From NCBI RefSeq assembly GCF_048403405.1, contig NZ_CP183129.1: 64,000 nucleotides of DNA, one strand, 5' to 3'. Positions 5,947 to 14,223 of the stretch are shown piece after piece. Each line of letters begins with the position of its first letter. Position 1 is the first letter of the stretch. The notes under the pieces were generated by a model. That model had not been told where the DNA came from and made no database searches. It worked only from the letters and a program-made list of their open reading frames with translations. The position numbers and the translations under genes are program-made. This DNA comes from Escherichia coli (lineage in GTDB: Bacteria; Pseudomonadota; Gammaproteobacteria; Enterobacterales; Enterobacteriaceae).

Positions 5947-6738
5947 ATGGGCCTTATGAACGCATTTGATTCGCAAACCGAAGATTCTTCACCTGCAATT
6001 GGTCGCAACTTGCGTAGCCGCCCGCTGGCGCGTAAAAAACTCTCCGAAATGGTGGAAGAAGAGCTGGAACAGATGATCCGCCGTCGTGAATTTGGCGAAG
6101 GTGAACAATTACCGTCTGAACGCGAACTGATGGCGTTCTTTAACGTCGGGCGTCCTTCGGTGCGTGAAGCGCTGGCAGCGTTAAAACGCAAAGGTCTGGT
6201 GCAAATAAACAACGGCGAACGCGCTCGCGTCTCACGTCCTTCTGCGGACACCATCATCGGCGAGCTTTCCGGCATGGCGAAAGATTTCCTTTCTCATCCT
6301 GGCGGGATTGCCCATTTCGAACAATTACGTCTGTTCTTTGAATCCAGCCTGGTGCGCTATGCGGCTGAACACGCCACCGATGAACAAATCGATTTGCTGG
6401 CAAAAGCACTGGAAATCAACAGTCAGTCGCTGGATAACAACGCGGCATTCATTCGCTCAGACGTTGATTTCCACCGCGTTCTGGCGGAGATCCCCGGTAA
6501 CCCAATCTTCATGGCGATCCACGTTGCCCTGCTCGACTGGCTGATCGCCGCACGTCCAACCGTGGCTGATCAGGCTCTGCACGAGCATAACAACGTTAGC
6601 TATCAACAGCATATTGCGATCGTTGACGCGATCCGCCGCCACGATCCCGATGAAGCCGATCGCGCGTTGCAATCGCATCTCAACAGCGTCTCTGCTACCT
6701 GGCACGCCTTCGGTCAGACCACCAACAAAAAGAAATAA
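5947..6738 (+). CDS. nanR: GntR/FadR-family repressor of sialic acid catabolism NanR
   Basis: 263-aa ORF with N-terminal winged HTH (GntR type) and FCD-like C-terminal domain; directly upstream of nanA. Confidence 0.93.
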
Positions 6739-10089: not shown

Positions 10090-11422
<1,333 letters not shown>

Positions 11423-11441
11423 AACTTAGTTCGTTTTAAAG

Positions 11442-11466
11442 ATTCTGCAGACACTGTCTGCAGAAT
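11442..11466. repeat. Perfect 25-bp palindrome centred between the convergent nanQ and yhcG stop codons
   Basis: ATTCTGCAGACA-C-TGTCTGCAGAAT; same core (CAGACA-N-TGTCTG with AATTC-type arms) as the three palindromes inside yhcG. Confidence 0.8.
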
Positions 11467-11481
11467 TCGAAACCGCTGAAA

Positions 11482-12609
11482 TTAACGGCGTCTATAGCCT
11501 TCCTCTAGCACCGCCTGTGTTCGAACGAGTTCATCCGCGAGTCGTTTTTCATCAGGTAGTTGCATCTTATATTCGCTCGCCAGAACGGTGTTAGGCAAAC
11601 CAGCCAGTGCATAATACGCTTCGCCGGCTCCTTTCTCTGCACAGAGAACCAGACCGATGGGCGGATTTTCATCCGGTAGTGTCCAGTGCTCTTTGGCGTA
11701 GTTGAGATACATATTCATCTGTCCGGCATCGCTATAGCTGAATTTGCCCACTTTTAGATCGACGATTAGCAGGCAGCGTAAACGGCGGTGGAAAAACAGC
11801 AGATCGACACGAAACCAGTTGTCATCAATGCGTAACCTTCGCTGTCGACCAACAAAGGCAAAATCATCCCCAAGTTCCAGCATGAAATCCATCAGGTGGT
11901 TGATCAGCGCCTCCTCAAAATCAGATTCTGAGTATTCATCTTTCAACTCCAGAAATTCGAGCACAAAGGGATCGCGTATCGCCTGTTGCGGAAGAATATG
12001 CATCTCGGCAGGAGCGTGTTGTTGCAGCATGGCTGATTTATCATGTGACAGTAGTGTTCGCTCATAAAATTGGGTCGCAATTTGCCGCTCTAGCTGGCGG
12101 ACAGACCAACCACAGCGGAGCGTTTCTTTTTCATAAAAGCTGCGGGCGTCAGCGTTTTTAACGGAAAGTAGACGGACGTAGGTGGACCAGGGCAGGGGGA
12201 AAGATTTGGCAGACAGCGTCTGCCAAATCTTTGCCGATGGGAATTCTGCAGACGGTGTCTGCGGCATTCCCAATGGTGTTAATTCGCCAGACACTGTCTG
12301 GCGAATTTCAACATGTTGAAAAAAGAGGTAAAAAAGCCTCATTTGGCGTAAGTTTTTTGCAGAGAACCCACGCTTATACCTTAGACTTAAATCCTTTGAT
12401 AGTCGCTTGATTAGCTGCGCACCATACGCAGCCCTGGCCTCGCCACCTTGTTCAAATTCGACAATTCGTCGGCCAATTTCCCAGTATGTCGCGGTCATCA
12501 GCGCGTTAACGCTACGTACCGTTTCCGTCCGGGCGCTATCGACCAGGTGAATAATACCGTCGTGGATTTGCTGGTAGCCTGTTGAGGTTCTCTCTGAGAG
12601 CGATTCCAT
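11482..12609 (-). CDS. yhcG: DUF1016 / PD-(D/E)xK nuclease-fold protein YhcG
   Basis: 375-aa ORF; C-terminal region ...FAFVGRQ...RVDLLFFHRRLRCLLIVDLKVGKF...ENPPIGLVLC resembles restriction-endonuclease-like fold of the YhcG family; convergent with nan operon. Confidence 0.85.
   Translation of the reverse strand: MESLSERTSTGYQQIHDGIIHLVDSARTETVRSVNALMTATYWEIGRRIVEFEQGGEARAAYGAQLIKRLSKDLSLRYKRGFSAKNLRQMRLFYLFFQHVEIRQTVSGELTPLGMPQTPSAEFPSAKIWQTLSAKSFPLPWSTYVRLLSVKNADARSFYEKETLRCGWSVRQLERQIATQFYERTLLSHDKSAMLQQHAPAEMHILPQQAIRDPFVLEFLELKDEYSESDFEEALINHLMDFMLELGDDFAFVGRQRRLRIDDNWFRVDLLFFHRRLRCLLIVDLKVGKFSYSDAGQMNMYLNYAKEHWTLPDENPPIGLVLCAEKGAGEAYYALAGLPNTVLASEYKMQLPDEKRLADELVRTQAVLEEGYRRR
12200..12307. 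repeat. Three tandem 39-bp units, each containing a 27-33 bp palindrome, in-frame inside yhcG
   Basis: Palindromes at 12200-12232 (perfect 15-bp arms), about 12241-12269 (imperfect) and 12281-12307 (perfect 13-bp arms); centres spaced exactly 39 bp; encode 13-aa units QTVSGELTPLGMP / QTPSAEFPSAKIW / QTLSAKSFPLPWS on the minus strand. Confidence 0.85.
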
Positions 12610-12792
12610 TATCTGTCCCTTTATATGGCGCTGTGTTGAATAATGGAATCAGCTATACGCCGGGCATCTGCCGGTAACAATCCAGATGTGCGTATTACAT
12701 TGGTTTTCTTCAGATTATGCGAGGCGCTTTCCAGTACGAAAGGAGAATTTCAGCGCCGACTCTTTTCTGAGGAGGCGGCGCTGGGACAGAGC

Positions 12793-14223
<1,431 letters not shown>

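Follow-up and report, generated by a model that had tools for sequence, protein, structure and literature searches.

We analysed a perfect 25-bp palindrome, here called P4, that lies between the convergent genes nanQ (also named yhcH) and yhcG in a stretch of 64,000 nucleotides of Escherichia coli DNA (contig NZ_CP183129.1 of NCBI RefSeq assembly GCF_048403405.1; hereafter the window). On balance, and with only slightly better than even confidence, we read P4 as an extragenic, displaced copy of a palindromic element of the DUF1016/YhcG genes and as a U-tract-free hairpin that probably serves the 3' ends of the two facing transcripts. The element inside the genes is conserved across phyla as a palindrome at the nucleotide level and not as a peptide, and the 44-nt segment made of P4 and its flanks is paralogous, in frame and in the same orientation, to a single-copy version of the internal unit and was found only in Escherichia.

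The gene family concerned is a very large one of uncharacterised nucleases, with about 24,000 clusters at 50% identity; YhcG matches the PADLOC defence candidate PDC-S02, and DUF1016/YhcG genes are frequent passengers of restriction-modification loci and mobile elements. The coding sequence of a candidate phage-defence gene here conceals a nucleic-acid element, the palindrome, and protein-coding DNA seldom conserves a palindrome across phyla while peptide and reading frame change. The element offers a handle on recognition by YhcG-type nucleases, with a defined 25-nt hairpin, cruciform or duplex as candidate substrate, and it illustrates how compensatory changes in nature can replace amino acids so that DNA symmetry is kept.

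P4 and its relatives inside yhcG

The palindromes of the window and the gene that carries three of them are as follows.

11442-11466, no strand assigned: P4, perfect 12+1+12 palindrome ATTCTGCAGACACTGTCTGCAGAAT in the nanQ/yhcG spacer.
11438-11481, minus strand: 44-nt unit made of TTTCAGCGGTTTCGA, the palindrome and CTTT, directly after the yhcG stop codon; it would read FQRFRILQTVSAES.
12204-12228, minus strand: P1, ATTTGGCAGACAGCGTCTGCCAAAT, third in reading order, encoding IWQTLSAKS; its pairing extends over 12200-12232 (15 bp).
12243-12267, minus strand: P2, ATTCTGCAGACGGTGTCTGCGGCAT, encoding MPQTPSAEF; imperfect, with one arm identical to a P4 arm.
12281-12307, minus strand: P3, AATTCGCCAGACACTGTCTGGCGAATT, first in reading order, encoding EIRQTVSGEL; perfect 13+1+13 palindrome.
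11482-12609, minus strand: yhcG, 375 aa, DUF1016_N plus YhcG_C PD-(D/E)XK nuclease, the match to PADLOC candidate PDC-S02.

P4 consists of two 12-nt arms, ATTCTGCAGACA and TGTCTGCAGAAT, that are 100% complementary around a central C, which confirmed the original prediction of a perfect palindrome between the two convergent stop codons. The distances proposed there (20 bp and 16 bp) were each off by at most one: 19 nt separate P4 from the end of the nanQ stop codon (position 11422), and 15 nt from the yhcG stop codon (11482-11484). As a single strand, P4 would form a stem of 11 bp with a 3-nt loop. The predicted RNA fold in a 71-nt context reached -24.1 kcal/mol on either strand (z scores of -4.8 and -4.4, equalled by 0 of 200 shuffles), and the predicted fold of the 33-mer as single-stranded DNA (ssDNA) reached -10.9 kcal/mol (z score of -5.6).

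The three palindromes inside the yhcG open reading frame (ORF) are spaced by 39 bp and form three in-frame units of 13 codons. Their core, CAGACNNNGTCTG, was found exactly four times in the window, at P1, P2, P3 and P4; when one mismatch was allowed, a fifth match appeared elsewhere, with 1.3 matches expected by chance. P4 and P2, the second in-ORF copy, have the 13-mer GAATTCTGCAGAC in common without any difference. The near identity of these two arms that had been proposed is thus an exact one, and the restriction of the core to four sites upholds the proposal that P4 is a non-coincidental fourth member of the same family. The middle arm triplets of P1-P3 differ from each other (TGG/CCA, CTG/CGG and CGC/GCG) with their complementarity retained, so that the residues encoded there change jointly (W with A-K, R with G-E). 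Folded as RNA, the three in-ORF hairpins together reached a predicted -63 kcal/mol (z score of -9.7).

The Pfam DUF1016_N match in YhcG spans 166 residues for 136 profile positions, which corresponds to about two extra units, and homologues in Escherichia and related genera have 1, 2 or 3 units, with lengths that include 349, 362 and 375 aa. The residues encoded by the palindromes (104-130) were modelled by AlphaFold as coil, with a predicted local distance difference test score (pLDDT) below 50, between confidently modelled helices; this model was based on an alignment of 45 sequences and replaced an earlier, poor one built from 20 sequences (pLDDT of 46). A sequence search of the PDB with YhcG gave a best E value of 0.14.

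The likeness of P4 to the in-ORF copies continues into both of its flanks. The whole 44-nt unit aligns without gaps, in the same orientation and in the yhcG frame, with the in-ORF segment FFQ(H/R)(V/I)E-IxQTxSxES-F. Its 5' flank, TTTCAGCGGTTTCGA, resembles TTTCAACATGTTGAA, the flank of the first in-ORF unit (FFQ-H/R-V/I-E), and its 3' flank, AATCTTT, resembles AAATCTTT, the flank of the last in-ORF unit; P4 is therefore equivalent to one complete, single-copy form of the region. Read onwards from the stop codon, the yhcG strand (TAA TTT CAG CGG ... GAA TCT TTA...) gives FQRFRILQTVSAESL, and in one E. coli protein (P0023) the yhcG stop codon is lost and translation reads through P4. We also defined a family signature (a palindrome of 25-27 nt with ATT...AAT ends, an AC-N3-GT centre and at least 11 of 12 complementary pairs). 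P4 carries this signature with 12/12 pairs, while 1.1 Mb of fetched sequence gave 0 matches after shuffling. P4 lies past the stop codon and outside the DUF1016_N coding region, and is accordingly a displaced, extragenic member of the family.

The palindrome in DUF1016/YhcG genes of distant phyla

We examined 80 DUF1016 loci, with one genome per species. The family palindrome, ATT-N3-SAGAC-A-S-T-GTCTS-N3-AAT together with co-varying derivatives, lies in the region that encodes the disordered loop of DUF1016_N. About 55 of the 80 loci carried CAGAC-N3-GTCTG with co-varying outer arms at the same position of the ORF, and these loci belonged to Beta- and Gammaproteobacteria, Acidobacteria, Planctomycetota and Ignavibacteria; phage contigs carried the family palindrome as well. 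The idea of a repeat family specific to the yhcG locus did not survive this result. Each locus had 1-5 tandem copies, at spacings of 36, 39, 42 or 48 bp, and a single copy was the commonest state.

Loci without the CAGAC core carried compensated versions of it, namely GAGAC..GTCTC, GCGAC..GTCGC and TCAAC..GTCGA. The first of them rewrites the peptide from Q..G to E..R; in the second, a serine codon changes from TCT to TCG, a synonymous change that follows the partner arm. Among eight distant homologues (37-43% identity) that we traced to their contigs, seven had palindromes at the same place with other cores (TACAC/GTGTA, CACGC/GCGTG, CACAC/GTGTG, CTACGC/GCGCAG and GTGTGAC/GTCGCAC). In two loci, L088 (49-nt spacing) and L086 (spacing of 34-38 nt), the copies are in different reading frames and encode unrelated peptides, which indicates that the palindrome is conserved and not the peptide.

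An alignment of 101 distinct 33-nt instances (A2) was used for the pairing statistics. Standard pairs filled 90.6% of its cells, a proportion that is inflated because the instances were partly picked for pairing (at least 9 of 13 pairs). Both sides had changed in 11 of the 13 pairs, with a covariation score of 0.42 versus 0.15 after shuffling (reached by 0 of 500 shuffles), and pairing fell to 16-44% when the partner was slid by 1-3 columns. A test free of such selection counted perfect palindromes (arms of 9 bp or more) in the 185 nt that precede the PWSxY motif: 59 of 86 genes had one, versus 14 of 1720 shuffled windows, and palindrome density in these 185 nt was 20 times that of the rest of the gene. 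Codon choice inside the motif also departed from that in the rest of the same genes: serine was encoded by TCT in 91% versus 10% of cases, isoleucine by ATT in 96% versus 27%, threonine by ACA in 85% versus 15%, lysine by AAA in 100% versus 36% and glutamate by GAA in 100% versus 47%. When the instances were chosen by their peptide alone, serine was TCT in 40 out of 40.

The same alignment bears on whether the symmetry is kept in DNA or in RNA. Mismatches at the inner pairs, read on the sense strand, were G-T in 13 cases, A-C in 24 and others in 53, so that the comparison of G-T with A-C showed no asymmetry pointing to an RNA strand and no tolerance of wobble pairs on either strand. The innermost pair, which cannot form in a hairpin, was complementary in 72 of 101 instances; the central base was C in 50 and G in 48 of the 101, and four arm pairs occurred with both. 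Taken together, these patterns suggest a dyad symmetry maintained in the DNA, by cruciform or hairpin pairing or by copying from arm to arm, which fits the sequences better than an mRNA hairpin, as a better fit and not as proof. The middle three base pairs vary between tandem copies and stay complementary, which argues for pairing within a strand or arm-to-arm copying and not for recognition of a fixed sequence. The shared binding site suggested in the original prediction may still apply, though not favoured as a plain duplex operator; the palindrome has no known match among the Metbox, C-box, LexA, CRP and similar operator consensuses.

A search of positions 11300-12700 against Rfam 15 returned only matches at chance level (E values of at least 1.8, with scores far below the gathering thresholds). 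The yhcG, DUF1016 and PDC-S02 literature searched does not mention the palindrome in the portions of text that were available, and in those portions we found no published description of the in-ORF element.

Copies also occur outside DUF1016 genes. An exact-pattern scan of viral contigs gave 38 loci, 23 of which lie inside DUF1016 genes. Most of the remaining 15 are fully palindromic at the positions that the pattern leaves unspecified, and so most of them are not chance matches. Two contigs (L125:4700-4830 and 6020-6150; L128:10560-10630) have a palindrome pair with a decayed DUF1016 fragment, and these repeats bound a SocA(Panacea)/MazF-like toxin-antitoxin cassette; in L125 two such direct repeats are followed by a tyrosine integrase gene, and in L128 an intact DUF1016 gene comes after the cassette. 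Elsewhere, a gene for a large serine recombinase has two abutting palindromes 16 nt upstream of it (L108:9938-9985), one palindrome shares bases with the stop codon of an AbiEii toxin gene that adjoins a D12 methyltransferase gene (L117:6506-6530), and one lies between RhuM and HNH genes (L092:5813-5837).

Finally, a second, unrelated palindrome, GCCTTGTCCAAGGACAAGGC, was observed at the peptide TALSKDKA, about 120 nt after the PWSxY motif of DUF1016 genes, in L027, L080, L059, L067 and 10 other betaproteobacterial loci. Its arm extensions (CACGGCC..GGCCGTG versus CCGCC..GGCGG) differ by complementary, partly synonymous changes.

P4 and the nanQ-yhcG-gltD junction in Escherichia

The genes on either side of yhcG are given here, together with the four E. 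coli alleles of P4, which are named by their middle arm triplets and central base and are all perfect palindromes.

10958-11422, plus strand: nanQ (yhcH), which ends the nan operon and converges with yhcG.
12793-14211, minus strand: gltD; its stop codon is 14 nt from the retained palindrome in strains without yhcG.
Allele CTG-C-CAG: 3004 E. coli genomes share the surrounding 41-mer without a difference.
Allele CTG-G-CAG: form with a flipped centre, class of 443 genomes (two sampled).
Allele CTC-G-GAG: class of 264 genomes; over 71 nt the sampled genome differs only by a mirror-image pair and the centre.
Allele CGC-C-GCG: about 950 genomes without yhcG.

The gene order is nanT-nanE-nanK-nanQ on the plus strand and yhcG-gltD-gltB on the minus strand. 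Positions 10900-12700 were 100% identical to several complete E. coli genomes, and K-12 carries exactly the same nanQ/yhcG spacer. In the signature scan, which covered the DUF1016 genome loci and the E. coli records (L001-L083) with flanks of up to 4 kb, copies outside the gene were found only in Escherichia (E. coli, E. whittamii and Escherichia sp. E1V33), and a query with the P4 flanks hit a median of 1 place per genome. Absence of the motif from orthologous loci of close relatives had been named as part of a refuting result, and was half borne out: the flank copy is missing in Pseudocitrobacter, Citrobacter, Kluyvera and Salmonella, and it is present in every Escherichia lineage examined. 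Within E. coli, P4 is kept perfectly symmetric through symmetric changes, and it survives the loss of yhcG.

The lone palindrome of the yhcG-less strains has the P3 sequence; on its 5' side some of the P3 flank is kept and on its 3' side the P4 flank, so the junction looks like a deletion scar that ends at a palindrome edge. A simple deletion between P4 and P3 was rejected as the sole cause of this allele, since the 300 nt at the yhcG 5' end and the promoter region are also gone, and a second deletion or a complex event would be needed. In E. coli d1-58 (L002:4044-4515), about 470 bp of foreign DNA replace P4 and the 3' two-thirds of yhcG, with the right break point exactly at the edge of P1; the insert has a 101-aa ORF annotated as 'transposase', which matched no family in Pfam and NCBIfam scans. 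Together with the variation between one, two and three units, these changes show that palindromes mark rearrangement end points at this locus.

E. coli genomes fall into three structural types at the gltD-yhcG-nanQ junction (window positions 12610-12792 compared with L003 and L001). K-12 has gltF, the yhc fimbrial genes and IS5 between gltD and yhcG, the window has gltD immediately upstream of yhcG, and in about 950 genomes gltD faces nanQ directly. The palindromic element would account for this structural polymorphism. Escherichia yhcG alleles have 47-77% identity in the palindrome region versus 85-100% across the rest of the gene. As a separate observation, the divergent mosaic patch measures about 180 nt, comprises the palindromes and 80 nt upstream (12204-12307 compared with L005 and L014) and resembles Pseudocitrobacter alleles.

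We propose that P4 arose by recombination or duplication of the palindrome region, possibly as a stub left when the 3' part of yhcG was replaced. Its arms would be kept complementary in DNA, via hairpin or cruciform pairing or via template switching from arm to arm, and not as an RNA helix that tolerates G-U pairs. P4 most probably sets or shields the 3' ends of transcripts from the nan operon and from yhcG (or gltBD), as repetitive extragenic palindromes do and with no U-tract involved, which makes it a candidate 3'-end element for the nan operon in E. coli. Like the stem of an intrinsic terminator, the stem-loop of P4 is stable, contains G+C and lies where a transcription unit ends. P4 is also the sole strong stem-loop between the two convergent units, and relatives have terminators there: the yhcG-nanQ spacer of Citrobacter amalonaticus has a bidirectional terminator-like hairpin that the scan called on both strands, and in that of Pseudocitrobacter an A7 run and a T7 run border a hairpin. 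A 3'-end role for both transcripts is therefore probable from this comparison. It is established, reportedly through work of Dar and Sorek in 2018, that a transcript whose termination lies further downstream can be shortened until its 3' end reaches a stable stem.

Several observations weigh against this reading, besides the partial selection of the A2 instances. No U-run follows the stem on either strand (tails TCGAAACC on the plus and CTTTAAAA on the minus strand), and the terminator scan did not call P4, in agreement with the earlier statement that it is not a textbook intrinsic terminator; the scan was equally silent for the palindrome of the yhcG-less strains. The Term-seq supplement searched has no entries for yhcG, yhcH, nanQ or nanK, which leaves the 3'-end role an inferred one. 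No remnant of a displaced 3' part of the old gene was found after P4, which leaves the stub origin a proposal. The genome of L133 has a P4 of the CTC/GAG allele with no counterpart among its own in-ORF copies, and homogenisation between flank and ORF copies is thus not universal. Finally, the sequence data separate a DNA mutational process from selection on an RNA hairpin only uncleanly.

Competing explanations and comparison with known systems

A broader proposal, which we hold tentatively and well below even confidence, is that DUF1016/YhcG genes carry a functional palindromic cis-element at the DNA level, a hairpin or cruciform that would co-evolve with the encoded, Holliday-junction-resolvase-like nuclease: the nuclease's own site of recognition, regulation or recombination, which would promote exchange of modules and defence cassettes, with P4 as an orphan and the yhcG-less junction as a scar. 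Its specific form, in which the palindrome would adopt a cruciform or an ssDNA hairpin that the YhcG-family nuclease would bind or cut, seems unlikely to us. The consequence would be autoregulation, or a defined break that drives the swapping of adjoining defence cassettes and of the gene's 3' part, and P4 would be an orphan site left from such an exchange. The co-occurrence of palindrome and gene family across phyla is consistent with it, as are the co-varying positions between a sequence-conserved tip (AC-A-S-T-GT) and base (ATT/AAT) and the absence of a wobble-pair signature in A2. The bounded SocA/MazF cassettes of L125 and L128, the outside copies beside serine recombinase, AbiEii, RhuM and HNH genes, and the E. 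coli break points at palindrome edges point in the same direction. One study (PMC1189080) reported the YhcG nuclease domain as closest to YraN-like and archaeal Holliday-junction resolvases. On the other side, 25-27 bp is short for cruciform extrusion. Foldseek against the PDB returned weak, generic PD-(D/E)XK matches (Cas4 family, MGME1) and nothing informative for the N-terminal domain. Some members have no detectable palindrome (L089; 27 of 86 genes without a perfect one), and no recombinase lies near the E. coli locus.

Quite improbable, in our judgement, is a functionless and self-perpetuating quasipalindrome, in which codons for I-x-Q-T-x-S-G-E that were half-palindromic by chance were perfected by intramolecular template switching during replication, and slippage then multiplied the element and once copied it into the 3' flank. 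Mutation of this kind, in which template switching corrects a quasipalindrome, is well established for E. coli (work of Ripley and of the Lovett laboratory). It would explain why the symmetry reaches the centre with C and G about equally common there, why the E. coli alleles differ by mirror-image changes only, and why copy number and spacing vary freely in a disordered loop that tolerates change; the second palindrome, with its synonymous compensatory changes in one DUF1016 clade, would also fit. However, it leaves unexplained the persistence of the palindrome through the peptide and frame changes of L086 and L088, the conservation of the ATT/AAT ends and of the tip across phyla against local codon usage, and the copies outside DUF1016 genes beside mobile and defence genes.

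That the hairpins act in the yhcG mRNA, through pausing, processing or binding of the nuclease to its own message, with P4 as a matching hairpin of the 3' untranslated region (UTR), we likewise regard as quite improbable. The predicted hairpins of the in-ORF trio and of P4 are very stable, the base pairs co-vary, and P4, past the stop codon, could fold free of ribosomes. Against this, G-U pairs on the sense strand are not enriched over A-C and other mismatches, complementarity reaches bases that cannot pair in a hairpin, no Rfam family matches, and the palindrome persists in strains that have no yhcG mRNA.

An independently evolved bidirectional terminator, similar to the in-ORF palindromes by coincidence, would suit the stable stem between convergent stop codons, but it is effectively refuted by the 13-mer arm identical to an in-ORF copy, the core found nowhere else in the 64 kb, the in-frame homology into both flanks, the family signature of P4 and the lack of both U-tract and A-tract.

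The element that we favour as the source of P4 is closest, among known systems, to intragenic repeats like the Rickettsia palindromic elements (RPEs) and to extragenic ones like the repetitive extragenic palindromes (REPs), from which it differs in size, distribution and linkage to one gene family. Like REPs and the bacterial interspersed mosaic elements (BIMEs) that contain them, P4 is a short palindromic stem-loop without a U-tract in the 3' untranslated spacer between convergent genes. REPs in such positions are reported to terminate transcription in part and to stabilise mRNA, and their presence goes with higher expression of both convergent genes (bioRxiv 10.64898/2026.03.23.713779). The sequence of P4 has no known likeness to the REP consensus, no REP model having been run. 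Moreover, its family has four copies in the 64 kb, three of them in one ORF, in place of hundreds of dispersed extragenic copies, and it tracks one gene family across phyla with no REP-associated tyrosine transposase (RAYT) implicated.

RPEs are about 100-150 bp long, restricted to Rickettsia and dispersed among many unrelated genes, with conserved DNA and a peptide placed in a permissive loop; Ogata et al. are said to have described their in-frame insertion into protein-coding genes of Rickettsia in 2000. The in-ORF palindromic repeat of yhcG is similar in its 39-nt in-frame units, in the 1-3 units of its homologues and in its disordered loop. In contrast, the DUF1016 element measures 25-27 bp, is bound to DUF1016_N genes and their surroundings, occurs across phyla and is repeated in tandem at 34-49 nt.

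Other systems share single traits with the element. A bidirectional intrinsic terminator would have the position of P4 and a hairpin usable by both transcripts, but P4 has no flanking A- or U-tract and its sequence derives from a coding segment. Genes of the Rhs/CdiA polymorphic toxins have orphan fragments downstream, which are expected when a new 3' part recombines at a conserved motif, and P4 likewise is a short, same-orientation, in-frame copy of an internal segment just after a stop codon; here, however, the motif is a palindrome, and P4 is followed by 7 codons and a stop in place of an alternative C-terminal module or immunity gene. Integron attC and integrase att sites are palindromic sites at cassette edges, and family palindromes of viral contigs lie beside recombinase genes (L125 and L108) and bound a toxin-antitoxin cassette; they are perfect, with a one-base centre and thus no directionality, and the R/L boxes of attC are absent from them. 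Only nan, yhcG, glt and yhc genes, and no integrase, are annotated at the E. coli loci. Type III toxin-antitoxin (ToxI-like) repeats have a similar period of 36-48 nt, whereas the DUF1016 repeats lie inside the ORF of a PD-(D/E)XK nuclease and are most commonly single, so that the element does not belong to this class.

Two minor features of the region are reported for completeness. In K-12, the divergently transcribed non-coding RNA G0-10703 is reported to overlap the yhcG 5' UTR by 128 bp as a possible antisense RNA (PMC7967276); it has no relation to P4. An inverted repeat, CAGCGCCGACTC / GAGGCGGCGCTG, is located at 12751-12783, just downstream of the gltD stop codon and with no U-run, and is a possible candidate for a gltD 3' hairpin.

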